DNA of 63,085 nucleotides, counting the filler, from Sphacelaria rigidula (taxonomy: Eukaryota): the NCBI GenBank assembly GCA_964200075.2. It is 6 parts of 6 records of this genome, joined end to end, with 100 filler letters (N's around TTAATTAATTAA, not from the genome) between each part and the next. Parts side by side here need not be neighbours in the genome. Positions count along the whole stretch, not along the records: positions 21,066 to 31,496 come from CAXNAA020006505.1; 5 more parts are not named here. The stretch is one strand, 5' to 3'. The notes beneath the pieces are model-generated. The model was not told the DNA's origin. It saw only the letters and a program-made list of their open reading frames with translations, and ran no database searches. Shown piece after piece: positions 10,434 through 50,512 of this stretch (position 1 is its first letter; every line of letters begins with the position of its first letter). The position numbers and the translations under genes were made by a program.

Positions 10434-10533
10434 NNNNNNNNNNNNNNNNNNNNNNNNNNNNNNNNNNNNNNNNNNNNTTAATTAATTAANNNNNNNNNNN
10501 NNNNNNNNNNNNNNNNNNNNNNNNNNNNNNNNN
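10434..10533. other. Artificial 100-bp contig spacer N44-TTAATTAATTAA-N44; repeated at 20966-21065, 31497-31596, 42027-42126 and 52557-52656
   Basis: Identical stop-in-six-frames linker five times, about 10.53 kb apart. Confidence 0.98.
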
Positions 10534-16300: not shown

Positions 16301-19300
16301 CAACACTATGGTCGTAGTCCACCGCTCTACCGAAACACAGGGCAAAACAAAAAAAAGAGTCAACACCCATCAAAACTACGGAGGTGAGGGCGTCGTGACG
16401 TGCACAAATTGTACCATCATAACAACACCAAACGGGAACAGAAACGCGGGGGCGGGTGGCGGCGGAGGATGGGAACGAAGGGAGGGTTGCATAGCAACAA
16501 AAACCAACCACAAGACACAACACGCAGTCTGCGCATCTGCGTATTATTCACGGACCGTTCTCTGTATTCATTTCGACTCTCTGCACAACCGTTCAATTTC
16601 TAACCCCGAGTCCGGGTCCCGCTCTGCCTTCAATCCTTCTCCCTCAATCTCTCGACATCCTCACCCGCTGTGAGAGTGAGGTCCAGGCGACTGCCGGCGG
16701 CGCGGCCCGCCGCTCCCTCCACCTCCTGTCCACCCCGCTTCGCCCCGCTTCTCCGAGGACATGGACTCTTCGTCTCCCGGCCCTCCCACCTTCCCATCTC
16801 CCCGCATTTCTCCCTGTTTGCCGCCGGATTTATTGCTGCTTGACTCGCCGCCGCCGACGCGCTGCTTGGGGGCGGGGTCGGTGGAGGATGACCCCAGAAC
16901 GCGCTCGACCACGCCTGTTCCCGTGTCGAAGACGTTTCGGCAGCCGATGCAGTTGCACTTCTCGGAGCAGGGGACCCCCTTGTTGAAGCACTCGCAGTAT
17001 TTTTTCAGGCACGCCGACTTGCGGCACTTGCACCCGGTCTTGTGCACCACGGACACGTTGTCGCTCCGCTGTTTGATAGTGGTCCATTCGTTGTGTTGTG
17101 GGCAGGTGGGGGAAGGTGTGCGAGGTGCAGTATGTTCAAGGGGGGGGAGATGCGGGTATAGACACGCGTGCTCGGAGACAGGGAAGAGGGGGCGTACTCA
17201 TTTGTTGCTTGCCTTAGTTGTTCGACCATTGAGGGGGGGGGGGGATTCATCGCAGGAGGGACCTTTTTCGTTCGCTTAATGGACAGAGCANNNNNNNNNG
17301 TCGGGAAGGGGTGGTTGTTGGTTCTCCTTTTTGTGTGGGTGGAGGTGTGGGAAGGTGGGGGGGGGGGGGGGGGGGATTCATCGCAGGAGGGACCTTTTTC
17401 GTTCGCTTAATGGACAGAGCAGCACATCATACGGAATGCGAAAGCAAAAAGGCTGACCGTGGGAATCCCGGAGGACGTTCGAGGTGGACAATGCGATTTG
17501 CGTGTACACCCCAGGGATCAAAATCCAGCCTGTCCTTTCGAGGGTAACTTAGGGTACACGCAATCTACTTCAAGCGGGGCGTCGACAAACTCGCTGATTG
17601 CGAATATTGTGGGATTCCACAGGAAGCAGGAAACATCGTGATTCAAAAATCAAGTTATAACTGGAAAATGACAAACTGGTGCGGAAAATGGGTGACGCTT
17701 GTGCAGTACTTCGAGGTCAAAATGTCGGTTGTTTCGCTGTGAGCAGCTCGGCTTCAGAGCATTTTTTTTTTGTTCATGCTTCATGTACACTAAAAGTCAT
17801 CATCGACGCATGCGGAGCCAGCAGCTACTGCAATGCGAGCGCAATTCGCCTGGGGGACACGACTCCTCAGCCCCACGCATCAGTACAGGAAAGCGAATAA
17901 TAGTAGCCTCCTGTATGCTCTTCACTGCTGACGAATCCTGCGCGTTGTGATCATACCTTCGTCCTGATTCTGGCACAATACTGCAGGCACATATGTTTTT
18001 TTTACTGATGAAGCTACGACAGTAGCATTTTAGGCGCGCATATTGTACAGAATAGAAACCCATGGGACTGAGAAAAACTGACCTCTTGGGTCTTGAATTT
18101 CGCGTCGAACGCAGACGGATTGCGCTCCAGCACGCCGTTAATGGCTTGCATGCGCATGCTCTCCTGTCCCGCGTTGTTGTAGCAACTGTGACAGTTGCAA
18201 GATATCGTGCACACGACCTGCATAGCGAAGCACTGACAGTAGCTGTATTTTCCATGTCGTCGCGTTGTCATTTTTTTGGGGGGGGGAGAAGGAGGGGGTC
18301 ATAAATTCCACCGCAAAATCAAGGCGCGCGGGAGAGGGGAGGGCGGGTGTGGGAGCAGACGAGAGTGGAAGAGGTTAGGAGGCGACTACTCACTGTACGC
18401 CCAGACAGGCGATAAAGCTCTACAATAGACGAAGTGAGGAAAGTTATTCCACGTATGAAAATGAATGATGACCATGATCCGTCAGATCGCACTTGTTCAT
18501 ACATGAGATGATTGATGTGATTGAAAGCAAAAAATAGAAAAGGCTGGATTCAGTAGTATGGCGGAGTGTACCTATGTGGGGCAGAGGATGGCAAAAACGG
18601 AAAATAACAAGAAGATGGCCAAGGAGATTTCACGCGATGACCGATCGAACGTGAGATTGGAGATAAAAAGGCGGAAAAAAGGCCATCCTTCACAACCCAT
18701 CATTATTATCTCGACTACTGTGCGTTTACATGTATATTATGTGGAAGTCATGCAACCGAACAGATCACAACGTGAAAAAGAATAGACATATACCAATAAA
18801 CATGTACAGATAGATTGGTGCGTGAACAAATAGAACCAGTGCATTATTCGGATATGACCAACGACAGCGGTACAGACTAAAGCCGATGTAGGGAACCACG
18901 TAGTATGCATATCGTTTTCCGCACTCTGCAAAGATTGCAAGGGTCCGACTACTTAATTAGTAGTCGTCTGGAAACTACTTGATTTTAGTGAGCTGATTCG
19001 TACCGTACGAATCAATCCATCCTTGAGCTTTGTTTTCAGCGTTGCAAGCCATGTACGCGCAGCCCCCAGGCACGTGGAATGGCGCAAAAAAAGCGTGGGG
19101 ACCTTTTTGACCAGCGGTCAGCGGTCAACTTTTTTTCTCTCTTTCGAGCAATCAGGCCCAAAAAAGCGAGAATTTGACGATTCGAATCGGCGATGATTCG
19201 TCCAAACCTTGGAATATTGTTCTTCTCTTCGGGTACATGCACGAAGGGACAACATGGTGCGGAACAGGAAAGTAAGATATCCAATCTCGATCCCATTTCT

Positions 19301-20562: not shown

Positions 20563-20860
20563 TTTTTCCAGCCTTGCATTCGTGCGGCATGAATCATAGG
20601 TGCATGTTCCTAGCCTTCCATTTATACGAGGTGGATCAAGAGTGCATGTATCTCAGCTTTCATCCATGCAGCATGAATCATTGGTACATGTTCCTCACCT
20701 TCCATTCACACGAGGTTAATCAAGCGTGCATGTTTCCAAATTTCCATTCATGCAGCCTGAATCATACGTACATGTTCCCCACCTTACATTCATACGAGAT
20801 GATAACCTGTGCATACTTCCCGTCAGTGACTCATACAGAAATTACGATTCGTACATATTC
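20563..20860. repeat. 42-bp minisatellite, about 7 units, alternating A/B types
   Basis: The + frame reads as 14-aa repeats: FPALHSCGMNHRCM / FLAFHLYEVDQECM / YLSFHPCSMNHWYM / FLTFHSHEVNQACM / FPNFHSCSLNHTYM. Confidence 0.85.
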
Positions 20861-22453
20861 TGAACTCTCGATTCCTGCACCACATGGAGTGTACCACAGG
20901 CACCGTAGGTAAGGTACCGTACGACGCGTACCCCCGGTATTTACCGGGCTATCCCATACCGTGGTNNNNNNNNNNNNNNNNNNNNNNNNNNNNNNNNNNN
21001 NNNNNNNNNTTAATTAATTAANNNNNNNNNNNNNNNNNNNNNNNNNNNNNNNNNNNNNNNNNNNNGAAGCCGGTAAGGTTTTACAGGTATCTCACCACGA
21101 GACCCCAACCTCCATGTGGATTTGACATGGAGGGGGAGGGGGGTGTCTCTCCGCTGAGCATCGGAAAATTATGAGCCGTGCACGAGGCCCGAGAGGCGCG
21201 GGATGACCAAGCTGACCGATCACGGTCGTCAAAATGAGCACTTCTGTTGCGGTAGAGGTAGACACCTGGTAGGCACATTCGCTGTCTACCCCCATAACTC
21301 ATTTTGAGCATGCCAAATCAACCATAGATTATATAACCAAACAGTAGGTGTTCGACCATCTTCGGTACACTGTGCTTTGTCTGCCTGTTGAGTACTGCCT
21401 GAGCGTCGTACTAGCTCTACACCATCATCTGGTATCAAACGTCATGGCGCAACACGCAAGTGGCGGCCACGAGTATCCTCCGCACGGAGATGTAGACAAG
21501 GTTCTTCGACGGTGAGGCGACCGCCATCGCCGAGCAATTGCTCTACGGTAGTCAGGAGCGTTCGCGGCGGTAGTCATGGTTTGATATCCAAACGCATGCT
21601 GCTTAAAGTCGGCATGTTCAACACTGTAAGATCCAGTACGCTGCAGACCGCACGTGCAGCCGCGGCACGATACACTACAGACGGCACAGCAAAAAATATG
21701 AGGCGTAATAACCAGGTGGTCGACAACCACACCACCGTTTGTCTTATGACTCTTACAACTATGTGCCTCTTATGCACTCCCGGCCCCTTCCGCCGTAGAG
21801 TAGGCGTTTTGGATTGTGACAAAGGAATGATTCTGAACCCAAAAAGTGGTGTGTCTACCTCAGTCTACCAGCGGGTGGGTCGCTGTCTAAGGGTTAAGAA
21901 GGGCTCTCACCTATGTAATCCGAATCCAATATACATAAACAAGTTTCCCGCACCCGTAAGATCCGAATCCGGTACACAAGAAAAATAGTGTTCAGTCTTC
22001 CTCACCTGCTAACCTGCATGACCCTGGTACATGGTGCATGTTTACAAAACCGTAGGCTGACTGTAACAATCCGGGCACATAAAACATAAAGTTGATGCCC
22101 CGGTGACTTCATAAAAGAGGTACAGGTACACATGTACACATGTATGTATTCTTCACTTCGGTAGCAGTAGTGGCGAGGAATAATGGTTGCGACTTGCGTG
22201 GATGGGAAATATGGTCAGTTGTGCCAGCGGCAGTACGGAAGACTGTTTCCGTTTTCCCCCGTCGAGGGTGCGCACTTATGTACGGCTGGAAAAGGAAGGG
22301 TCACTATGACTCTTATGCTCAATTGACACATCATGACGCTGTTCGGCCAGCGTCTGACAAACTTTCCGGCGTCGATGAACCACGGGCGGCCGGCTCCCGA
22401 AAGCCCACCCGACGATCAGCCGTATGACCTTTGCGATCTGCGAGTGGTATGAT

Positions 22454-22886
22454 ATCCATATAACCCGGTTGACCTATACATATTTCTCGGCTGGTGTCCT
22501 GAAGAACCTGGTTAATCTCTACATATGCCTTGATTACCGATCTGTAAGAACCGTGTGATTCGTACATGTCCGTTTGATGGTGATGTGTACGACCCGAGTG
22601 GCTTGTACTATGGTTTCCATAAGTAATTTGTATGCTTCGTTTTATCCGTACACCGCCTCCTCAGACACACCTGTGTGATCCGAAGTAGGTGTGCTCAGAT
22701 CGCCGATAGCAACCTGTGATACCCTCATGACTCGCGCAAGACACCTCCCTCGTGAACGATGAAACCCGGAACACGGGAACCGTTTCATAACTAGTTGCAC
22801 TGTGCCACCCAAATCGTTTAGACAAACTTGTTTACGTTCTACCTGTGTAACCCGAGTGACACAGGTAGTGGTCTGCCCAATATGTG
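22454..22886. repeat. Degenerate 43-bp tandem array ending in a decayed right TIR of the CACACGTC family
   Basis: ACCTGTGTAACCCGAGTGAC-like motifs at exact multiples of 43 (clearest at 22454, 22540, 22583, 22669, 22712, 22841). The terminus ...GTCTGCCCAATATGTG resembles ...ACTCGCCCGACGTGTG. Confidence 0.6.
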
Positions 22887-22894
22887 AAACATTC

Positions 22895-23789
22895 CACACG
22901 TCGGACGAGCACGAGTGTGACCCGTGGCACTCGCACTCGTTAGGCTGCTCGTTGGCCGTAAACATGAACAGGGCGAGCACTCGAGTCATCGCTCGTTGTG
23001 GCAAAAAATTAACGGGGCGAGCACTCGAGTCATTGCTCGTTGTGGAATAAATTAATACAGCGAGCACTCGAGTCATTGCTCGTTGTGGAAAACATTTAAT
23101 ACGGCGAGCACTCGAGTCATGGCTCATTGTGGAAAAAATTAACCCCTTTGGAACCGGGCCTCCAGAACGACCAATGAGGCTGGTTGGGAATGACGTGTCT
23201 CATGTCTGCATGAAACAGTGGCATGTTGCTGAAAATCCGCGTATGTAACTGCGGGGTTATGAGGAAGGTCGAAAGTTTCATCCAATCTATTGTCAGGTGC
23301 AGGGTGCGCATTAGGTAATGCACATCTGATGTAGCAAACAGTGTGTGTCGCCGTCGAGAGCTTTCAACAGGATTTCGCCTCGTCGGGATTGGGCAGGTCG
23401 CTCCCCGACTCATTTTTTATTGTTCCACTAACACATGGTCAACCCCTTTTGAGTGGGGAATCGGTGCCAAAAGGATTGATAGGGCGAGCCCTCGAGTCAT
23501 TGCTCGTTGTGGAAAAACATTATCAGGGCGAGCACTCGAGTCATTGCTCGTTGTGGAAAAATATTATCAGGGCGAGCACTCGAGTCATTGCTCGTTATGC
23601 AAAACATTAATATGACGAGCACTCGAGTCATTGCTCGTTGTGGAAACCAACTAAAAGGGCGAGCACTCGAGGCATTGCTCGGCGTGGAAAAAAACTCAAA
23701 GGGCGAGCACTCGAGTCATGCTCGTTGTGTTTTCAAAAAACATCCACGAGTGTATTCGTTTCGACGAGTAATGACTCGCCCGACGTGTG
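22895..23789. mobile_element. Non-autonomous DNA transposon (hAT/P-type TSD length) with an internal 43-44-bp hairpin array
   Basis: 15-bp TIRs CACACGTCGGACGAG / CTCGCCCGACGTGTG (1 mismatch). Perfect 8-bp TSD AAACATTC at 22887-22894 and 23790-23797. Ten copies of GGGCGAGCACTCGAGTCATTGCTCGTTGTGG plus an A-rich linker. Confidence 0.88.
23143..23475. mobile_element. piggyBac-like MITE inserted into the hairpin array
   Basis: TTAA|CCCCTTTGGAACCG ... CGGTGCCAAAAGGA|TTGA (TIR 11/14). Excising it restores a normal array unit. Confidence 0.55.
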
Positions 23790-26700
23790 AAACATTCGAG
23801 GAATTGACGATTGACATGAAATTTGAGAGAAATTACTGCTTTCATGTGCAAGTATTCCCCACAAGCAGTAATGGCCGGAAAAAAGGCGCACTTCGCGGTC
23901 CTTGGCCACTTGAGACCTACAGAGACCAGCGCGTTCTTTTCAAATCACAGTGGGACGTAATTTGATTCGCTTTCCATTGTCTTTGCCGATAAGACTTGTT
24001 GCACCTTTTTTTTTTACCGAACACTCCGGACGTCGTTTTTTTATGGTCACACTCGACTGATTCTACCCCACCACTTCTAAATTAACACGGTCGATCGGTT
24101 CGTTTCGAATAGATTATCTGCACCATCAGAACGCTTCTTGCCGCCGCTCTGGACACGTCATCGAAACTTCAACATTCACACTCTTAACAAAGTCTTCAAC
24201 ATTGCATACGTAACCCTCGATACAAAATTCTTCATTTTCCCCCGTATGTCTGGAGTTTCTTTCAGCGAGTATTTCCGTTCGCTTATCTCGGATACGTATT
24301 TAATTTTTGTGACCACGGCCAGGCTCGTAGCGAATCAGTTGATGTCAGTTCGCGACAACTGGCCAATCAACCGATTAATCGCATCACAGTGAGTGACAGT
24401 GTATCTCAGGAGACGCTCCACTCCTCTGTCGTCGAGCCGCGAGCGTCCTTGACTTCAAATTGTTTGCTCCAATCTTGCGTCGAAATAGCTCAACGCGTCT
24501 TCAAAGCTTCTGTATCGGATACTTGGATCACAACTTCGTCCTCCGCCGCCTCAATATGTTCTACCCCTCGACTGCGGTTTTTCGCCTACGTCTCGCGAGT
24601 GGAAGGGAGCGCGGCTCCGCACGGCGCTGTCACCTTACGTGCACGTGGAGATTCTTCGCAATTCTCCCCTGCGATCAAATATGCCTCCCTGCGCCCACGA
24701 CCAGACACAGCGAATCAAACACATTATACACACCACCTGACTCGTGACTACTGTTGCACAGAGTTATCGCGAGACGCGCTAAAGTTTACGTATGTACGAA
24801 TATACCACCGTCAATCTACCGAAGAGGGCGCAGAAGCAGTGGAGTGCAAGCGGCGGAAAGTGAGCCTGCGTGCTCTCGGAGAGCCGCTCACACGCTCACG
24901 ACACATAGCAAAACAAAAGCCTCGCGTTTGTCCATTTTTTGTGTACACTTCACCATGCGGTGTCCCGCTGTTGAAACGCCAATCCACTCATCTTGAATAT
25001 CTTGACTCTCCCGGCTCACCATACACCGCGAAAAGTGTTCAAACTGCTGCCAATTCGCTACAAAGACGACGGCTTGCGTACGAACAGTTTACCCTGGATC
25101 TTACCAAAGAATGATATCATTTGCTTTTCGCACTTCTGAGTTTTATTTACACTACGATAATAATTGTACTAACAATAGCTGCCTGAATCCCTGGCTATGC
25201 GAACTTGTCGTTCAAGCGTGACCAACGGTAAAATCACGACAATTCCATGTCCCGTGCCATCTGGCTCATTGTGCTGCACCAAACGTACAACTCTACCTGT
25301 TTGTCTTAATAAGCTTTCCCCGTCCTCCATGTACATAATGTACTCTCAAAAAATGAGGCCGCTTCGTATGTGGATGAGATGTTTTTCACACGAGTCGACA
25401 TTTGAGTTTTTTTCATCATTCAACACTGCTTTTAATTCTGAAATAGAAAATATCGCCGCCACGTATCTTTGACGCTGTGCATCACTTCACTGAGAGAAGC
25501 CTAACTCACTTTCCTGATTCGCTGGGGCCTCAGGCTTCGCAAAAAGCCACCTGCCAAAACTCCAACTGAAAATGGAAGAACGTTAAAACGATGTGGAAAT
25601 TTGCAAGTACCGTAACATACACCACATTTTTTTTTTCACGTCCCGTTGGAGTTTTGGCCGGCGGGCGCTCACGAAACGTAGGAGCCCAGCGAATCGCAAG
25701 AGTGGGTTCAGCTTCTCTCAAAAACATCACGTATAGCGTCGAATTCATGTTGTGGCGATGCTTCCAGTTTTGGCATCTAAAACAGTCCCAAACTCGAGTA
25801 TCCCTACGAAATCTCGCGTAACTGTAAGGAGCAGTCTGGGCATCTCGAAAATGGAACGACGCCTCACTATTGTGCAGCACATATCTGAATATTATAATAT
25901 ACGATTTCTCTCGTTACACCGCTGGGGAGGCTGCAAGTACTGAACTCTGAAGGCCTGAGCGGCAATACAGGGGTGGCGGGAAAAGCGCCGCCTGAAAGGC
26001 GGTCGCGTTCAACCCAAACCCCTACCCCTTGCTAACACCCTTCTCTACCGCCTGCCCAGGGGACTTAATCGGGACCCAAACACAAAGACATCGTTCAACG
26101 GTGTTGGATGTAGGCTCAAGTGAGCAGAGGATACACCGTTAGGACGACTAAACTCGTGATTCAACTCATATTCATCATCTCGACGGATAAATCATACTAT
26201 TCGTACATCATGTGTAATTCATACAGCTTCTCAGCTCGTGGGTCGTGCCGTATCACCCAAAGGTACCCGCTTCCTACCTCCCATGAATACCGGGGTAAAT
26301 AATGGGCACATAGTCAACCCTGCACTGCAAATTTGAATGCATCGATTGTACATGCCACGCACCTCTTACTATCATGAGTCGGGAACGTCATGTACAACTT
26401 TCTTGACCAGGTCGTTCGAGGTGAGCATTTTTGTCACCTTCGGGCTAATGCGGGACCAACAAGTTGTACAGGTTGAATCTTCACTCCCGATGGGCCCTGA
26501 ATCACGCGTAATTTTCTCGTAGCTGTAATGCGCGCAAGAGGATGACTGCGATGCATATGTGTCATCCACCCTTGACTCAGCGGGACAAACGGTTTATACA
26601 GCATGACTGCTTTCGCATCATAGGGAGTCCACTCGTATGAACTCTGATTCGTCCTAACCGTAAAAGAATACCGCCCGTCGACGGTGTGGGATGCTTCAGG

Positions 26701-32257: not shown

Positions 32258-34629
32258 ATTTGCCGATGAGTGTTTTGGGGGTGATGAGCCTGAATTAGCC
32301 TGTAGTATGGCTGGTTGTGTCTTTCCGTGGCCGCGGGCGCTGGTGCCGATGCCACCAGCAGGAGCCGTCATGCTGACGGGTGCAAGCAATACCCTGGCGG
32401 TGCAGTATATCCGCACTGTGCTGTGCGTGGGGTCTGGCCCAGCCGGTCGAGCGGTGTATACTGGTGCTTGTTGTTTGCCTTTACCCAGTCATGTTCGGTA
32501 TCGCGCAAGTGATGGGTCCGGTTAACATGAAGTTTTCAACAGTCAAGTGTGTAGACAGCACTGCGTCCCGACTGGTACTGTATGTTACAGAGAGATGAGG
32601 ACAACAATACACCACATGAAGCAATCTCAGCGGATACCAAATCGTCTTCGCAAGGTCTAAAATACCACACAACAGTGATAACTACAGCACATGAGAGCGG
32701 ACGTGAATGTGTTTGTGCTGCAGTACAGTGAAACAAGACATATCTCACGTGTTAGTTCGTCGGCTGATTTGAAACGGGTCCTCAGTGTTTGCCGGGTGCC
32801 GATCTTGAACGCTCGGGCATAATCGCGCTTCGCGCAAACAATTTGATTTGCTACAAAATTATCCCCATGTATGAGTCCTGGGCCATTTTTGAACGCACCC
32901 GCGCAATACACAGCAGGCATTTAGGGTACGCCACAGTACGCACACCCGCAACACAGCTCACACGCACACACACACAGACGAATCATCACCAGCTAGCCGC
33001 AAAAGCAACAGCAGCAGCAGTACTGTAGTACGGAGACCGCCGTTGAGCCTATCGCACACGCTTCACACGCTTAGTGGACACCTGCCCCACGAACTCTACA
33101 GGCTGGTTCAGGGTCAACGACCAAAGGTTTACTCCCCGGCGATTGTTGTCGTGTTTTCGAGTTGGACCTGGTTGGACCCTGAAATTTTGCACACGGGTGC
33201 TCTGAGATATCCCAACACCGCCTCCTGGGACCCCGGATATCTGGCGAAAAAATATCGAAAGACCCATTCATACCGTACAGGCCCTCTAAATATATCAGAC
33301 CACCCGTGTACATAGTGTCAGGGGCTCGAAAAAATGGCGTCATCAATCGCATGTGGGTGCGTTGGAGGGTGAAAATGGATGCAGAATCCCCCTAATAATT
33401 GTTTATAGAATGCTACCGGCTTTTTCCTTTTGCGCTCGAACTAGACCCTTAGACAGCGACCACCCTGCAGGTGGACCGAGTTGGGCTATGCCACAGTAGG
33501 GTTTCAGAACAGCCTTTTCTCGCGACACACGACTCCCTTTTCATGAAATGTGGATATTTGACATCTGTTTAAAAATTAGTCCCGGACAACCCAAAACCAG
33601 TTTTGACCCTGCAGTCAATTGCGTGCGGAGTCGGTATGTATGTGTGCTGTATATCTTCGCTGGATCCAACGGCAAGAGGCAGTGTAAGTGCGCCATCGCC
33701 TCGACTGGGCACAATTTAATCCATGCTGCTGATGCCTCTGTTTAGTGTTCAACAACACTAAAGTGTGGAGGTGTCACACGTCGGACAGGTCAGCTCCCTG
33801 TAGCTCGAGCTAGCTCTTTTTTAGCGTAGCTCCCTAGTGAGCTATGAGAGCTATATGAGGTACGCATGTTTTTCCTGGGTGAGCTATGAGAGCAACATGA
33901 GCTGCAATACGCATGTTTGCCCTCGGTGAGCTACCAACCCATAGCTCATCAGCTGATATTCGCCGCGGGTGAGCCATAAGAGCCCCATGAGCTACGCTCG
34001 TGTGTCGTGGATGAGCTATGAGAGCTACATGAGCTGCGCATGTTTGCCCTGGATGAGCTAGGAGAGCTAGGTGTGCTACGCATGTTTTTCCTGGGTAGGC
34101 TGTGAGAGCTACTGTACATCAGCTACACGTCTTCTCCCTGGTTGAGCTGAAAAGCTACGGGAGCTACGCCGATCTCGAAGTTATTTCTGCGCCGATTAGG
34201 GTTAGGGTTGTACATGAACTCACTAATCAGGGTTGACTTTGATGAAAATATTGATTTGAGTCATATCAACAGTCACATCAACGCGTCGCTGATTAGTTGA
34301 TCAACTTGAACCAACCAAGTCCGAATAACTGGTTTGATAATGATGAGTTGATTTTTCCAGGAAGAAAAGAGGCGTTTGCGTCGTGTAACGTTTTTTTGCC
34401 TTCGGCGCAACCATTGATCGACGGATATGTCTACTCATCGACTCTACTACTCCCGAAAAGACGCTAGCAACGACGAACACATAGCAGCAGACAGGAGCAC
34501 ACAGCAGACAGCATTCCGCACGCCACGTAGCGCCACACTCTAGCAGCACAGTGTGGGTCGCACGGAACTTGACACAATGAGGGGAGCAAGGAAGGGCAAA
34601 GTACGTGCTGTAGGCAATATCGACACCCC

Positions 34630-34992
34630 TGAGAGCCCGGAGGACTTGAATCTTCGTATTCACACCATATTTTCGAAATATGGTCCCGTTCCTTCACTTG
34701 CTGGCAGATATTGACAACTACTACATGCCGTACAAATTTGGACTTAGATAACGGAAATGTTAGGGTTCTAGGTGAAAAACCCAATTTGGGGGAACTTCGG
34801 CGATCAGATCGGATCATCTGAATTCCCCCAAATAGTTTCTTCACCTAGGACCCCAACATGTCGGCTATCAGGATCCAAATTGGTATCGCGTGTAGTAGTT
34901 GTCGATAGCTACCAGTAGTAGGTGAAGGAGTGGAACTTAATTTCGAAGATTTGCATGGTGCGGATACGAAGGTTTGAATCTCCGGGTTCTCA
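34630..34992. repeat. Long imperfect palindrome (fold-back/MITE); related arms at 52038-52492
   Basis: Arms TGAGAGCCCGGAGGACTTGAATCTTCGTATTCACACC... and ...GGTGCGGATACGAAGGTTTGAATCTCCGGGTTCTCA. The same motif appears inverted twice on contig 5. Confidence 0.7.
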
Positions 34993-35797
34993 TCCTCATC
35001 GAGAAACCCATCCCCAATTTGTAAAATCCCGTGTCCGACACTGCCGTGTCGCTGGAATGCTCTAACGACCACGACCACAATCACGATGACAAAGGGAGGG
35101 ACGGCCAATCTCGGCCGACTTTTGGCCTGTGTGCTGCTTAAATTCTACCGAAAAAATCAACTAATTATGATTAATTCATTGACGTGTTGTTGATTGGCTG
35201 ATTAATATTGACGTGCTGTTATTGAACACAACACGGCCGTGCTGCTGCTGTTGTCTTGTGTGTGCGTGCTCGTACGCTCCACATTGTTCCACAGACAAAA
35301 ATCAGCCGATTTTTGGCTTGTGTGCTGCTTAAGTTTTACCGAAAAAATCAACCAATCGTGATTGATGGATGAATTGACGTGTCGTTGATCAGTTGATTCA
35401 TATGAACTGATCATCATTAAATCAAGCCGATTTGAAAGGAAAAACTAAATATCAGATCAGCCCCTCAAAAAGGTTGGTATACAACCGTGCTTCTGCTGCT
35501 CATGCATTTTGATACGTGAAAACAGTTACACGTGTACACACCTGTGTTGCGTTTCGAGTAGTGATGGATTTGCCGTTATTAAACACCAACATTGACCGCA
35601 TCAGAAGCCATCCGCACCGTAGCCACCCCACCTACACAGAACCACACGCACACACAACCCGCCCTACATGGCGACCGCCGGGGGCAGCAGCTCTAGCGGC
35701 GCTTCAGTCGGAAATGATGCCGTAGATCTGGATCCTCCTCAACAGGCGCTCGATGTGGAGGAAAAAGTGAACACATACACACTTTTTGATTGCTGAA

Positions 35798-35911
35798 CCC
35801 TTTGACCGCGAGGGTAGGCGATCTGTTGAATCGGCATCATTCACCCCCGAACCCGAAAAATAATCTGAAATATGCTGATTTGACATATCACCTACCCTCG
35901 CGGTCAAAGGG
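35798..35911. mobile_element. 114-bp piggyBac-like MITE
   Basis: 40-bp TIRs starting CCCTTTGACCGCGAGGGTAGG (35/40), flanked by TGAA and TTAA. Confidence 0.8.
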
Positions 35912-37989
35912 TTAAAGTTTTCGACAGCGAGCACAGGTCATGTGTTGAGTCGGCTTCAATTTCACTTGAAAAAATTATGCATGACCCAATGGACTCGTAC
36001 CCTCGCGGCCAAGCGGTCAAAAGCAACGGATTGGTCCATTACTAAGGAGACCGAATCTTGACCGTGTTTTGACCATTCGACCATGCGAACGACGATTCGT
36101 GTTGAGCTCTTTTCTTCCCACCGTGAAAAGCGAGGCAGAACACAATGTAAGGATATGTTACGCCGTCTATTTGAATAAGACCGTAGCATCATGAGCGACA
36201 CCGGGTTAGCCATGCACATGACGTGAGTGAGCTATGAACATTTGTTGCCTGATTGAGCTACCGAGCGTAGCTCATCCATTTATGTTTTCCTCGGGTGAGC
36301 TGTAAGAGCTGCGTGAGCTACACATATTTACCTTGGGTGAGCTATCAAGTGTACCTCATCCACATATGCTTTCCACGGGTGAGCTACAAGAGCTGCGTGA
36401 CCTACACATGATTTTCCTGGGCGAGCTACAAGTATGAGAGCTGCATGAGCTACGTATGTTTGCCGTAGGTGAGGTACCAACCCATAGCTCATCAGCTCAT
36501 GGTCGCCCTGAGTGAGCTATGAGAGCTGCATGAGCTACGCATTTGTGCCCTAGGTGAGTTACCAACCTGTAGCTCATTAGCCCATATTCGTCCTGGGCGA
36601 GCTATGAGAGCTACATGAGCTACGCATGTTTGTCTTGGATAAGCTACTAACCCGCAGCTCATCAGCGCACGTTAACCTTGGGCGAGCTATTGGACGTAGC
36701 TTGCATACACATGTTTGATTGCAAGTGAGCTACAACTCGTAGATGAGCTAATGTATGAGCTGTCTCACGTGTGGAAGCTATGCTGGCAGCACATAAGGCG
36801 TCAGACAGGCGGCATAGACCTCGAGCAGAGCACAAAACAACTTTTTTGCACCCATGTAATCTACGGTTGAATTGCGATCACCAAAATGTAAGATGCCAGT
36901 AGAGAGCGGAGTAGTCCACCTGTAGGGAAACCACGTGCTCATTCTGACGACCGTGATGGCCAGAGTGGTCATCCCGTGCCTCTCGGGCCTCATTCCTGGC
37001 TTAGAATCTTTCGCGGGAAACTCATGTATGTAGATACGTGGTTGACTCGGTAAGCTTTTCTGCCGCTCTGCGGAGAGACGTCCCTTCCCCCTGTCAAAAA
37101 CTACCCCCCCCCTGGCCACTGGAAACCCCCGAATGTCTCCGGACTGTCAGCCTGTAAAACTCTTTCTAGGCGACGCCCACTTGAGCAGTGCCCGCGTTCG
37201 GACAGCTGTGTCGAAGGGCAACCTCTGAAGGTCGGCATGCTGCACAGCGGCACAGGTAGAGGGGACAGAGAAGAATCTCGTGAAGATGGTGCTGCTAAAG
37301 AAAGTAGTCAATAAGTCACAGGGTGCCCTCCCTAGCAAACTCACGTACAACACGCCACCAACGTGATAAACGAGGGAATCCACGCAAACGAGACACCCGA
37401 ATGGCGAGGAAATGGCAAAAACGTCCACTCCTGCGTATTCCCTTGCGGCCTCGGCGTTGTCAAAGACACGCACCGCCAGCGACTACCGTAAATAAACTGT
37501 CGAGTATGAATTCGGCTGTTTTATTTCTCAGCAAAAAGAGGCGCTCGTTGTTGGCTTGACTCATTACCATCCCCTGACACACGTCGATGCGGCCCTGATA
37601 TCGTCCTGGCAGTTACGTCTATCGGTGACAGGTCCGCATACAGGGAGGCACCTGTAGGATGGTACTGCACTGCACGGTGCCGTCCGGCGCATTGCTGTGT
37701 TGTGCTGTGTTGAAGTATTTGTATTACAAGAACGACTCTATTATACGGCATGAGTTCAATGCAGTGTTGTGAAAGATTGGTTCCAAACCACTTTCGCTGA
37801 GGAGGGCATCTCGGGAACCTTGGCGGGGAATGAAGAACGGCTTTGACCATTAACCCGTTTCCCAATCCGGTTCATCTCCTGCTTGTGGTGCACCGTTCGT
37901 GCCACGGATTCCTGCTCAGCAAGTCACATATAATTCCAGTACGCTCCGGTCTCTCATTGGTTTTCATGATATCATTGATACGATGCACG

Positions 37990-45741: not shown

Positions 45742-48700
45742 ATGTCTCACCGTAAATTTGAGGCTCCCCGTAACGGATCCTTGGGTTTCTTGCCCAAGAA
45801 GCGTACGAAGAAGCACCACGGACACATCCGCTCATTTCCCAAGGATGACGCCGCCAAGGAGCCCCACCTCACTGCTTTCATGGCCTACAAGGTACGAACA
45901 TGGACCTTGTGATGTAGCGGTAGGTTGTGGTGTCCCTGGCCCTTGAACACGAGATCAATCAGCATACTGTCTGTAACTGCGATCTGTACTCCGACGGGTA
46001 GTACCTCGATCATATCGTGAACTTCATACTCCGCAGGGAAACGCAGTGCGAGATGCGAACGTGCACGGAAAATATTGGGGGGCTTTACCTCTCGACATCG
46101 TGGAGCATTCCTCCATCCTAATGCCAAATGTACACCGGACGCGAAGGAAATTGTCAAATTAGAGGAACGTAGTGTACATTGATCCACTAATGTTCAGGTA
46201 CCTGAGATGATTGTCGTCAATTCTCACTGATCGCTTGATGCTGCTTGACTACAGAGAGTCGAGCCATGAGGTGCTAGAAGGTGGACTTTTTTTTCGTTTG
46301 TATTGCTCTTGTCATCTGGTGGCTCAGCAGTCCACAGTAATACGCTTACATGTGGTTTATTCGGGAAACTGGTGACGCTGTGGTGTGAACAAGTTTGAGC
46401 AGCCTTCAACCTGGCCCAGTTCGTACTGACTAACTGACCGACCGTACGAAAACCTTGTCTCCAGGCGGGAATGACCCACATTGCCCGCGAGGTGGACCGC
46501 CCCGGGTCGAAGGTGCACAAGAAGGAGGTGGTGGAGGCGGTGACAATCCTGGAGACCCCGCCAATGGTCGTGGTGGGCGTGGTGGGCTACGTCGAAACCC
46601 CCAAGGGCCTCCGCACCCTCACAACCGTTTGGGCCGGTCACTTGTCCGATGAGTGCAAGAGGAGGTAAGATGAGGGATATCATGACACGAACCGAGTTTT
46701 TTTTCTCCAGTAACATGTGTGTACCAGTTTTCGTATGAATCCAAGCCTTTCCATCAGCAACTTGATCATTTCTATACATGTGTTCCGGTGATGTCATAGA
46801 ACACGTGAAGTACTTTGCACAAGGCTTGCGCGAAAATCCTTGGACATGAGGAGACAGCGACCCTACGCGGTCAATCGCTCCTGGATTGCGAAGAAACATA
46901 TTTTCGGATTCACCTGACGGAAATCCTTCAACCCTCGAGACACATTTGAGCCAAAGGCTCGCCGTATCTTCTTTGAGTTTCCGAAGTGGTATGTAGTATG
47001 AGGTCATGTCTGGTGGGATGCGGAATTTTTGACACCTTGGACGAAAAGTGGTCGGGAGATGCAACAGACGAGAGAAACGGATTAACTTGAGTACAGCCTA
47101 TTGGGACCGTTTTTGGGCAGGCAATAGTTTCCATAGACGTAAACTCTATTACACTGTTCGTCCACTTATCTTTTGACCACATACTGTCCAGAGGGGGAAG
47201 TTGTTTCAAGATTCGAATACCGGTGTGGAAGTCTTCCCGAGGGTTCAGATTCTGTCTGGTACAAAAGTTATACAGAGGAATCCCCCTGTAACCGAGTACC
47301 AACGGGTATCTCGGTAGTGTGGCGAGCTTTTCATGCTGATATCTCACCGAACTTCGGCACGGGTGAAAACCGATGTGTCGTCGAATTCAAAATACTAACA
47401 GATGGATTTTTTTTGCGTGGGGGGGGAAGCTGTATTTTGAAGTTGAGTCTTCCTCGAATCGGCATCCTTCGGAGGAAACGCAAATTCTCACGGCGAAGGC
47501 ATCATGACGGTTTCTGCATTTCCTCGCAGGTTCTACAAGCACTGGTACAAGTCAAAGAAGAAGGCCTTCACGAGGTACGCCAAGAAGTTCGCGGAGGCGC
47601 CTCAAGAGATCGACGCCGAGCTTGAGCGCATTAAGAAGTACTGCCAAGTCGTCCGTGTCATCGCCCACACTCAGGTGAACATACCAAACGCAAACTCGAG
47701 TGACACTCGAGGATGTACCGAAGTTTCCTGCTGTGAGCAGATCCGCTACCCTGGGTCACCGTATTGTGTTCGTCCACTGTGCTGGAATTCCTGACGGAAA
47801 CTCTGTGCACGGCATGACCAGTGGCTCAGTTGGTGACCTCGTAACGTTTTAATTGAGTAGGGGGATTCGATTCCTGGAGCGATCTGGAATCTTTTCACAC
47901 ACCATGCCCAACAGTGGGAAGCGACCATGTCGTGGGTAGTCAAAATTCGAATGACGGTCGACGGGGAAAAGAGACTACTGAACCCTCTCGCGATAAAGAG
48001 TACAGGCAAGCATCGCAGAAGGGAGCTGGGGTATAAAAAAAAACGATCAGGAAAAACCCCTGTCGACCTTCCCCCCGTGTGACCCCAGCTAATTCACCCA
48101 CACATACCCAAAAGTTGGACTGGTGCACAGAATGAATGACACAACACACACAAAACACGCTTATCCAACGATCTCTACGTGGTCTACGAATTCAGGTGGG
48201 CCTGGTGAAGTTGAGGCAAAAGGCTGCGCACATCTGCGAGATCCAGGTCAACGGTGGCGACATCGGCGCCAAGGTGGACTTCGCTCGCGGCCTCTTCGAA
48301 CAGAAGGTGCCAGTCGACGCCGTCTTTGCCAAGGTGAGGCCTTCGTCTTGATCGAAGTGCGACGTAGGTATTGTGCAGCACTGGTGTCTCGTGTCAAGGA
48401 TTTGAATGCAAGCGTTGGAGATCGGCTCCCTCCCGTCGGGGGTACTTGTACGTGCTGTTCTACTTTGTGATTTGCCCACTTCTCTGTCGATCTTCTCATC
48501 TCAGCACTGATGATAACTTCTTGACCGTGACCTTCGACAGTGGGGTGTAGTCCGTCACCATCCTAAAGAAGCCGTTTCTTTCGTTATATAATCAGGATGA
48601 GTGCATCGACGTGCTGGGTGCCTCCAAGGGTCACGGTACTGAGGGTGTCATCACGAGGTGGGGTGTGACCCGTTTGCCACGTAAGACTCACCGTGGTCTG

Positions 48701-50512
48701 CGCAAGGTAGCTTGCATCGGTGCCTGGCACCCTGCTCGCGTCAGCTTCTCCGTGGCGCGCGCAGGACAGCACGGCTACCACCACCGGACAGAGGTCAGTT
48801 ACACGTCAACTTACAAACGTTCACATCCCGGGCAAGATGCTGTCGAAAAAGTGTACTACGTACATCATAACATGCTCTGTATTGCGATGGACCCAACAGA
48901 CAACACTGTACGCAGTACTATCCTGACAATAACTTGTCGTCGAGGATGTGCAAATTCGGTCGGTAATGAGTTGATGTGTTTCATCGTCGAAGTTCACGGA
49001 GCGCTCGGGTAGCGAAAATCATGACGTATACTTCGGTATTTGGTAAATGACCTCCGCACCTCAAAACGGTGTTTTTTTATTCAGCCCAGTTCCACCTTCT
49101 CATCTTCCGTACTCATTCATGTCTTGCTCCGGCAGATGAACAAGAAGATTTACCGCATCGGGAAGAAAGGTGACGTCGGCTCTGCCTCCACTGAGGCTGA
49201 TCTTACCGTCAAGCACATCACTCCGCTGGGTGGCTTCCCTCACTACGGGGAGGTACGTATCCGTCAAGGAGGCCTCGTTCGTCTAATTTAGAGCGGGCTG
49301 TAACAGTGTAATGTGTCATGCACTACCTACCCTTTCCGTTCCTCGGAGGGGGGCCCAAGATATCGATCAATCAACCGTCTTCCCCCGCGGTCAAGATTGA
49401 GTCGAGGTGACAAGGAAACATTAATGTACACTGACATTGTGTCGAGAGTTCATTTCTGTCGAGGCGACTCGTCGCCCGCATTGATGGATGGCGCTGGCAG
49501 CTTCACGAAGCGATACTCCCTGCTCAGTGGGAGTGTGGCTTTTCAGTGTTGGATGAAAGCCTTCGGGCCGAAGTCGAACCGCTGCCTAGATAAAACCCGA
49601 AAACCAGCCTTCACACACTCACCAAGCCTGAGCCACTCGCGTTGATGTGCTTGGCCTAACACTGCTGGACATTTCATGACTAGTATATAATCGATCCCCT
49701 CGGCGAGCTCGAGTGGAAAATGGTTCACATTGCTCGGCCTCAACTAAACCTCCGACAGAGGGAAGGTCGAGTGTTGTCACTCAATGTGGAATTAACACCG
49801 CTCATCCGCATCACCGTCGGAGTGCTGAAATATGTGGTGTGGATTGACTTCATGGACATCGTTGAAATGAATGGGGAGCAATCCACGACATCCCCCACTG
49901 AACCTCCCCGGGAAAGTTGATTGTTTACCGAGTACGTGTTACGACTCAACCGTCGCAGTTCGTGAGCCAACATTCTTGAGCAACACCGACGGCCTGCTAT
50001 GGCAAATCCTTGACCTCCACAGTTGTGATGTATCCCAGGTGAACGAGGACTGGCTGATGCTGAAGGGCTGCGTGATCGGGTGTAAGAAGAGATGTGTCAC
50101 CCTGCGCAAGTCTCTCATGAGCCACTCCCGCCGCATCCACCTCGAGGTATGTTTTCTTCTCCCCGGGCAAACGTTTCAAGAGTGTCTTGAAAAGAAATAC
50201 CGTGTGCCCAGATGTGTCATGTCTCCTCTCAGCCTTTGACCTAAGAAACGAAGCTGGAGTACGTGGACTTTCGTCATGAATGTCACTGCAGTTGCATACA
50301 TGATGTTTGTATGGCATTAAATGTCATGTTCGCCACTGAACACCCCATCGCTCATTTCCATCTCCTCACTTACATCGCTTGTTGCATCATTCCAGCAAGT
50401 GGAGCTCAAGTTCATCGACACATCTTCCAAGTACGGTCACGGCCGCTTCCAGACCAAGGAAGAAAAGGACAAGTACCTCGGTCCGCTGGCCTCCAAGCAG
50501 GCGGCGGTCTGA
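45742..50512 (+). CDS. RPL3: 60S ribosomal protein L3 (uL3), 390 aa; exons 45742-45891, 46465-46664, 47530-47674, 48196-48333, 48596-48793, 49136-49252, 50039-50146, 50396-50512
   Basis: All introns are GT-AG and the CDS is 1173 nt. Conserved motifs: [69 protein letters not shown]. Confidence 0.98.
47811..48043 (+). mobile_element. Near-full-length tRNA-derived SINE in RPL3 intron 3
   Basis: A box TGGCTCAGTTGG, B box GGATTCGATTCC, body CACCATGCCCAACAGTGG shared with the 42127-42246 copy, and an oligo-A end. Confidence 0.8.

Follow-up and report, generated by a model that had tools for sequence, protein, structure and literature searches.

The element at positions 22895-23789 of the window, which is the whole 63,085-nucleotide stretch of Sphacelaria rigidula DNA analysed here, is almost certainly a non-autonomous hAT cut-and-paste transposon without a transposase gene, called family B. 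Longer copies with family-B ends and arrays carry a broken, spliced hAT transposase. The element is ordinary in kind, being one more non-autonomous member of the common hAT type; what is new is that its sister families keep nearly the same repeat spacing with unrelated unit sequences. No literature description was found of hAT ends with 41-44-bp arrays whose period is conserved across families, in a search that left most subscription papers and Repbase outside its reach and is thus weak evidence of novelty.

The window element is 895 bp long and its termini are CACAC/CATAC (Table 1). The earlier note had described a perfect 8-bp TSD, 15-bp TIRs and ten CGAGCA-N10-TGCTCG units with an inner CTCGAG, all of which were found: the TSD matches at 8/8 bases on both sides, the TIRs agree at 14/15, nine units were recovered at ≤3 mismatches (0 in 100 shuffles) and the tenth, at 23704, has a one-base deletion. 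The inverted copy of the motif reported from the interior of the right TIR was also recovered, as CGAGTCATTACTCG inside the right end. The ten units do not, however, form the single array previously described, but two blocks (4+6) of the same orientation with about 340 bp of non-repeat DNA between them. CGAGY/RCTCG sites, which run inward from TIR base 12, number 45 in the element, a density of 50 per kb compared with 4 per kb elsewhere in the window.

Table 1. The family-B element, its family-A neighbour and two comparator elements, in window positions.
Feature	Positions	Strand
Right part of an older hAT sister (family A) that stops directly before the left TSD	21906..22886	+
Left 8-bp TSD AAACATTC, also directly after the family-A right TIR	22887..22894	.
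Left TIR CACACGTCGGACGAG: 11-bp tip common to sister families, then family motif CGAG from base 12	22895..22909	+
Left subterminal cluster of five CGAGY/RCTCG half-sites, out of tandem register (extent from motif positions)	22906..22951	+
Left array: four units, 43-44 bp each; every unit has an A-tract and four CGAG half-sites whose orientation alternates	22972..23142	+
Interior, non-coding, ~340 bp without repeats	23143..23480	.
Right array, 6 units, oriented like the left array	23481..23729	+
Subterminal motif cluster on the right; read from the right end inward it contains CGAGTCATTACTCG	23730..23774	-
Right TIR, 14/15 against the left TIR	23775..23789	-
Right 8-bp TSD AAACATTC, followed by single-copy DNA	23790..23797	.
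Comparator: family C, sister hAT, same TIR tip, two same-orientation 42-bp GAGCT arrays	33775..36773	+
Comparator: family D 42/84-bp array, ATGAAT/ATTCAT motif	20568..20802	+

The assembly examined comprises 244 Mb in 27,214 contigs, from which genomic loci (numbered with the prefix L) were fetched around family-B, family-A, family-C and hAT matches. The 15-base TIR pattern had 567 exact matches in the genome, compared with one for a control pattern, and 50 complete family-B copies of 206-6401 bp were delimited in the fetched loci. The flanking 8-mers of these copies matched at a mean of 6.74/8 bases, compared with 3.77 after re-pairing (maximum 4.36); 16 copies had perfect TSDs, 18 had one mismatch and seven matched at ≤5/8. 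Among assumed TSD lengths of 4-11 bp, only 8 bp gave a high match (0.84 against 0.21-0.43). The target preference was nAnnnnTn, with A at position 2 in 87% and T at position 7 in 91% of 43 TSD pairs. Dispersed copies with differing TSDs demonstrate past transposition, and the 50 complete copies bear out the initial identification of a DNA transposon with 8-bp TSDs.

The window copy descends from a 1.55-kb subfamily by internal deletion, which removed 680-708 bp at a junction (23372-23373) with 2-bp AT microhomology. The same junction is present in L002-L005, indicating that the deleted form itself spread, and the interior of the window copy is 83-88% identical to its nearest copies, indicating that it is not very young. 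Elsewhere, a family-B copy is nested in reverse within the left array of another family-B copy (L045, and L040:217-1500), and in L045 the nested copy has its own 8-bp TSD, in an A-tract linker. Tandem duplication of termini was observed in L010 and L036, which are 1.2-1.4-kb copies with a second, internal left end, and in L009, in which left ends are repeated and arrays are also present. At L050 (232-3697) and L051, gag (zinc knuckle) and pol pieces resembling those of an LTR retrotransposon lie beside a family-B end; the long ORFs by the unpaired end at these loci were considered as a transposase and rejected, since they belong to the nested retroelement.

The search for a transposase-coding partner, suggested in the earlier note, succeeded in that several copies hold hAT exons at an identical position between family-B ends, but every transposase copy examined is broken and therefore no active source was found. 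L031 (3.7 kb) has both ends, an 8/8 TSD and an exon matching PF05699 (E 8e-10); a search with this exon gave 99 matches, the best ten of which have 67-100% identity. L108 extends over about 7.3 kb between its left TIR and right array, and its interior is matched at 92-93% identity by those of L102 and L106. The L102 exon matches PF05699 (E 4e-11) and also Hermes (E 3e-6; PDB 6dww, 4d1q and 8edg), with ERDFS aligned to ERTFS, the catalytic-glutamate motif. The window copy has no gene and its interior is unlike that of L108, so that it is tied to the transposase-bearing copy only by its ends and arrays.

Other exons contain what we take, by eye, to be a candidate BED-like finger, two aspartate motifs, a CxxH motif and a W motif. 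The candidate BED-finger and first two aspartate exons had no Pfam match (eight of nine pieces without a relevant match) and PDB yielded nothing for the first-aspartate exon; the first-aspartate exons of families B and C share 28% aligned identity. A full HMMER search with the dimer exon returned 720 matches at E ≤0.001, the best at 59-74% identity. Cluster names were looked up for ten of these matches, nine being unnamed and the tenth an unrelated fish annotation, with no named close relative among them, and a word-based protein search of the dimer exon against longer proteins retained 0 of 1475 candidates. In a tree of 20 dimer-domain pieces, family A grouped with family C and family B stood apart, with three of 17 branches well supported (starred).

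The features that bear on the superfamily are a 15-bp TIR, which lies within the 10-25 bp given for the short TIRs of hAT elements in the available text of PMC3942097, an 8-bp TSD, PF05699 with the catalytic E inside the ends, and subterminal repeats. Of the two superfamilies that the earlier note had offered, hAT is borne out by the PF05699 exons inside the ends and P is not; the P superfamily was rejected for family B, whose ends are CACAC/CATAC and not CAAGG and whose enclosed gene is hAT. A broader version of this alternative, in which the ends belong to another superfamily with 8-bp TSDs (P or KDZ) and the hAT exons were captured or nested, is extremely unlikely and largely refuted. Ectocarpus KDZ elements combine 8-bp TSDs with tandem repeats in their termini, as described in the accessible part of PMC12477816, which would suit such an origin, but several copies carry their hAT exons at one and the same position within the ends, hAT exons are likewise enclosed in two sister families that have this TIR tip, and the ends of Ectocarpus hAT-2 are CACAC-GTGTG whereas the KDZ and P families listed there end otherwise (PMC12477816). 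A genome profile search for the KDZ transposase (PF18758) gave no match, with the controls equally silent.

Among described families, the nearest is hAT-2_Ec32 (Repbase hAT-2_ESi) of Ectocarpus, which was compared by its description only, as far as this is available. It resembles family B in its CACAC-GTGTG termini and spliced hAT transposase gene and in being long, at 8.9 kb compared with ~7.3 kb or more in family B (PMC12477816). Its 8-bp TSD is assumed, whereas that of family B is shown, and it differs further in being a single intact copy with 21-bp TIRs, tandem repeats going unmentioned in the accessible text (PMC12477816). The hAT superfamily makes up 0.05% of the Ectocarpus genome according to the same text (PMC12477816), whereas Sphacelaria rigidula has hundreds to thousands of copies, several families and periodic arrays. 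Likenesses to Hermes, a hAT element of the Ac group, include the 8-bp TSD, short imperfect TIRs, asymmetric ends, a C-terminal domain with the catalytic E motif and a 4-bp subterminal quasi-palindrome right inside the TIR, while the Hermes sites are described as scattered and not as 43-44-bp tandem units (PMC10368747, available part). The Hermes-like Ac-group target is nTnnnnAn, whereas that of family B is nAnnnnTn.

Spacing between array units was 43-44 bp in 433 of 535 intervals (718 units), with a mean of 43.4 bp. At a helical repeat of 10.5 bp per turn this mean is 4.1 turns, which is not an exact phase. The earlier suggestion of phasing near four helical turns is kept plausible, though no more than that, by the periods of 41-43 bp in sister families with unrelated units. 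The number of units per block ranges from 1 to 19, and a 7/8 TSD flanks a 206-bp copy that has a single unit, which means that long arrays may be dispensable.

The linkers of about 13 nt, which the earlier note had called variable, are homologous copies and not unique spacers, with most columns 70-96% one base among 493 linkers; the eight linkers of the window element score 0.61, compared with a shuffled mean of 0.44 and maximum of 0.50. CRISPR spacers are unique and usually about 26-72 nt long. Cas1 (PF01867) was not detected in the assembly, which may be incomplete and in which seven of 14 controls were detected, and Rfam returned nothing better than E 0.91 for the array unit and no CRISPR match. 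A CRISPR array was rejected on the grounds of the homologous linkers, these Cas1 and Rfam results and the lack of a compensatory excess in the stem, and the CRISPR mimicry seen in the earlier note is unsupported. Palindromic arrays in transposable elements can resemble CRISPR, which calls for caution.

It is very improbable that transcription and processing of the array give functional small RNAs of hairpin or CRISPR-like type. A single unit is able to fold into a 7-8-bp stem (-9.3 kcal/mol), and three units together are more stable than their shuffled counterparts (z -3.7 on the + strand and -2.1 on the - strand), which follows from the palindrome being repeated. The hairpin motif of the earlier note is present, but the hairpin itself is weak, with single-unit RNA z-scores of -0.9 to -1.8. 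Among 718 units, moreover, the loop (88-97%) is as conserved as the stem (87-97%), and the six stem pairs have 35 double changes where chance would give 31, so sequence variation lends no support to the proposed source of hairpin RNA. Equal loop and stem conservation and chance-level double changes, together with the homologous linkers and the Rfam and Cas1 negatives, leave both the CRISPR and the hairpin-RNA readings unsupported.

The idea that a satellite DNA able to exist apart from the transposon is arising, or has arisen, from the array is improbable. Blocks reach 17-19 units, several contigs end within arrays, and tandem repeats borne by transposable elements have given satellites elsewhere (PMC9659126, available part). 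The MITE-borne repeats described there (Xmix/Xstir, miDNA4 and Tetris) resemble those of family B in being tandem repeats spread by a non-autonomous DNA transposon, and differ in that they gave free satellites, none of which were seen for family B (PMC9659126). Among 141 blocks, 118 abut a terminus, 11 have a terminus within ≤8 kb, eight lie at locus edges and four are orphans, in a census biased by the finding of loci mostly via ends or whole elements. Against free satellites also stands the ratio of exact units to exact TIRs, which is 853/567 (1.5) genome-wide and 56/41 (1.4) in element loci. The satellite source anticipated in the earlier note was accordingly not seen as any free-standing array, the longest block having 18-19 units in a fragmented assembly of 27,214 contigs in which arrays may be collapsed.

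The reading preferred overall, which is probably correct, is that of a non-autonomous hAT moved in trans by the family-B transposase, with arrays that are multiplied clusters of BED half-sites. That the arrays are amplified clusters of candidate BED-finger sites is itself likely by analogy with better-studied transposons. In Hermes, two BED fingers cooperatively bind 4-bp sites that form a quasi-palindrome immediately inside the TIR, and this binding needs an AT-rich neighbour (PMC10368747, available part). In Muta1, a foldback MULE of Aedes aegypti, more tandem subterminal repeats lead to more transposase binding and excision (PMC5499845, available part). Muta1 shares with family B tandem subterminal repeats with variable linkers, and differs in belonging to another superfamily and in having 12-bp inverted units inside long TIRs (PMC5499845), whereas the family-B units are 43-44 bp long and share one orientation at the two ends.

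Under the proposed mechanism, the family-B transposase would move the window element in trans, with its catalytic dimer cutting at the 11-bp TIR tip, which is common to the sister families, and its N-terminal BED finger reading the family motif CGAG(Y). The 43-44-bp unit would be a tandemly multiplied cluster of four half-sites in quasi-palindromic pairs beside an A-tract. The palindromes would serve the binding of double-stranded DNA, making the hairpin a by-product, and extra units may raise transposase loading, such that array-rich non-autonomous copies would be favoured. The TIR tip is unchanged in sister families A and C, which have another motif from base 12, and family C has a different BED-like finger, as judged by eye. 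As the two arrays have the same orientation, unequal exchange can alter unit number and recombination between arrays can remove the interior. Such recombination probably produced array-only minis, which account for 8 of the 50 copies (L038, L039, L043, L044, L048, L056, L062 and L067) and in which the length fits two termini plus one run of 1-19 units. Arrays of the same orientation provide an uncomplicated path by which long elements can become MITE-sized.

The arrays could also be neutral passengers in the same hAT, with only the outer 60-80 bp of each end mattering, an alternative with a substantial chance that falls somewhat short of even. A subterminal segment would have been duplicated in an ancestor, after which concerted evolution replaced its sequence and its length was inherited. 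This would account for unit numbers that vary from 1 to 19, for periods that differ by family (41, 42, 43 and 43-44 bp), for the drift of a 43.4-bp spacing by ~1.4 bp per unit from four turns, and for family A, which is still multi-copy though its period has decayed to an autocorrelation of 0.34 compared with a background of 0.25; families A, B and C are moreover relatives, so a common period can be inherited. Passenger arrays sit less easily with units that, in each family, are dense in the motif starting at TIR base 12, with a period kept at 42-44 bp while transposase pieces fall to 28-37% identity and units lack similarity, and with the 41-bp period of family K, whose CAAGG ends are P-like by the filing in the available Ectocarpus table.

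In the wider set of families, F, H and K resemble A, B and C in that the family motif starts at about TIR base 12. Family C has 8-bp TSDs and a hAT partner (L169) with pieces 28% and 36% identical to those of family B; an apparent 1.3-kb insertion in its window copy (about 34630-35490) is missing from most copies. Other copies of family D end in the terminus CACGGTTCGGACGAATC (read inward), which is related to the CACACGTCGGAC tip, and neither a TSD nor a transposase was found for this family. Family F (L113:7013-8665 and L037:895-1923), which is often inserted in or beside family B, has the TIR CACACCCTGGAC / CACACCCTGGACAATA, an 8-bp TSD, 2098 exact TIR matches and 42-43-bp arrays with CAATATATATTG palindromes. 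Family H (L040:4410-5491) has the TIR CACACCCTGTACAACT, an 8-bp TSD and 42-bp AACTAGTT arrays, and the copy sits within another repeat of 82-bp period. Family K (L118:205-1426), inserted in a family-A copy, has CAAGG ends, an 8-bp TSD and a 41-bp TACTC/GAGTA array; the GACCTTTG site matching this insertion is unoccupied in the window's family-A copy, near 22427. CAAGG ends are filed as P-like (P-1 to P-3) in the Ectocarpus table, as far as this is available (PMC12477816).

In 913 kb of loci, 29 tandem-repeat clusters were identified, of which 12 have periods of 41-43, 43-44 or 82-84 bp, representing about ten families after pairs were merged by eye. Of the rest, seven have a main period between 49 and 114 bp that falls outside these ranges and ten are under 30 bp, with no cluster at 30-40 bp; because the loci were fetched around family-B, family-A, family-C and hAT matches, this sample is rich in transposons. 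Family E has an additional 27-bp period, and no link to termini or to a transposase was found for families G, I, J and E, nor any transposase link for families F, H, D and K. In 12 other hAT dimer loci, no 41-44-bp period was present in the last 900 bases, the ends possibly lying beyond the fetched DNA.

Periods of 41-44 bp correspond to 3.9-4.2 turns, near a fixed phase but off it, and it is doubtful that a repeat spacing of about four turns was selected. Similarly speculative is a hAT radiation in which families would share one catalytic-tip sequence, each with its own BED motif, and a multimeric transpososome that wraps the ends would, through its geometry, fix the period at 41-44 bp. If this were true, BED finger and motif would co-diverge at a fixed period, yielding a naturally occurring set of transposase-end pairs that are orthogonal, in which competition of non-autonomous elements for transposase could be tested, and the P-like family K, at 41 bp, would represent an independent arrival at the same spacing. 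To our knowledge, the recognition of their own ends by hAT transposases and the need for sequence far inside the TIR have been worked out structurally only for Hermes. A sister set with the same tip, different motifs and a similar period makes both BED-motif specificity and any spacing rule directly testable.

The left end of the family-A neighbour lies outside the contig, and its last 480 bp have a cryptic 43-bp period, detected in family A at lags 43 and 86 on the right and 43 and 42 on the left, with three controls flat. Family-A copies terminate in the TIR tip common to the sister families and are flanked by 8-bp TSDs, and the family-A partner L094 encodes a hAT dimer domain. The decayed TIR of the neighbour ends at 22886, so that the TSD is common to both elements, and the right TSD of family A was most likely the insertion target of family B. 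P element and hobo tandem dimers, which arise by double insertion, likewise consist of two elements with one 8-bp target duplication between them (PMC5932611, available part). Here, by contrast, the partners come from separate sister families, and gaps of 7 bp outnumber those of 8 bp: among 17 outward-facing TIR pairs 4-14 bases apart genome-wide, eight are separated by 7 and four by 8 bases, with none in the control. Insertion at or next to the target site of a relative thus recurs. A very high-copy repeat, with deep contig cover in all four sequencing runs, interrupts the family-A element at 21066-21900.

An empty site, which the earlier note had proposed to look for in other samples, was not seen, no joint skipping the element occurring among the 15 of 120 joints listed from four of ten sequencing runs. 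Runs X3 and X4, from two studies, bridge both junctions, with left overlaps inside the element of 25 and 15 bases, below the 31 advised, and run X5 bridges the right junction. X3 may be the source sample, and X4 has 11 differences over about 1775 bases to the right, where the flank of the element is single-copy. Repeats of the left flank were considered as empty alleles and rejected, being family-A copies with other TSDs.

Elsewhere in the window, 16661-17197 on the - strand is presumably a host exon with a CXC/tesmin-like cysteine motif, and 48551-49012 on the + strand is presumably a host exon encoding a ribosomal protein L3-like piece. Gaps occur at 10434, 20966, 31497, 42027 and 52557, about every 10.5 kb, and the gap at 20966-21065 contains a 12-base TTAATTAATTAA linker between N runs, which is an artefact.
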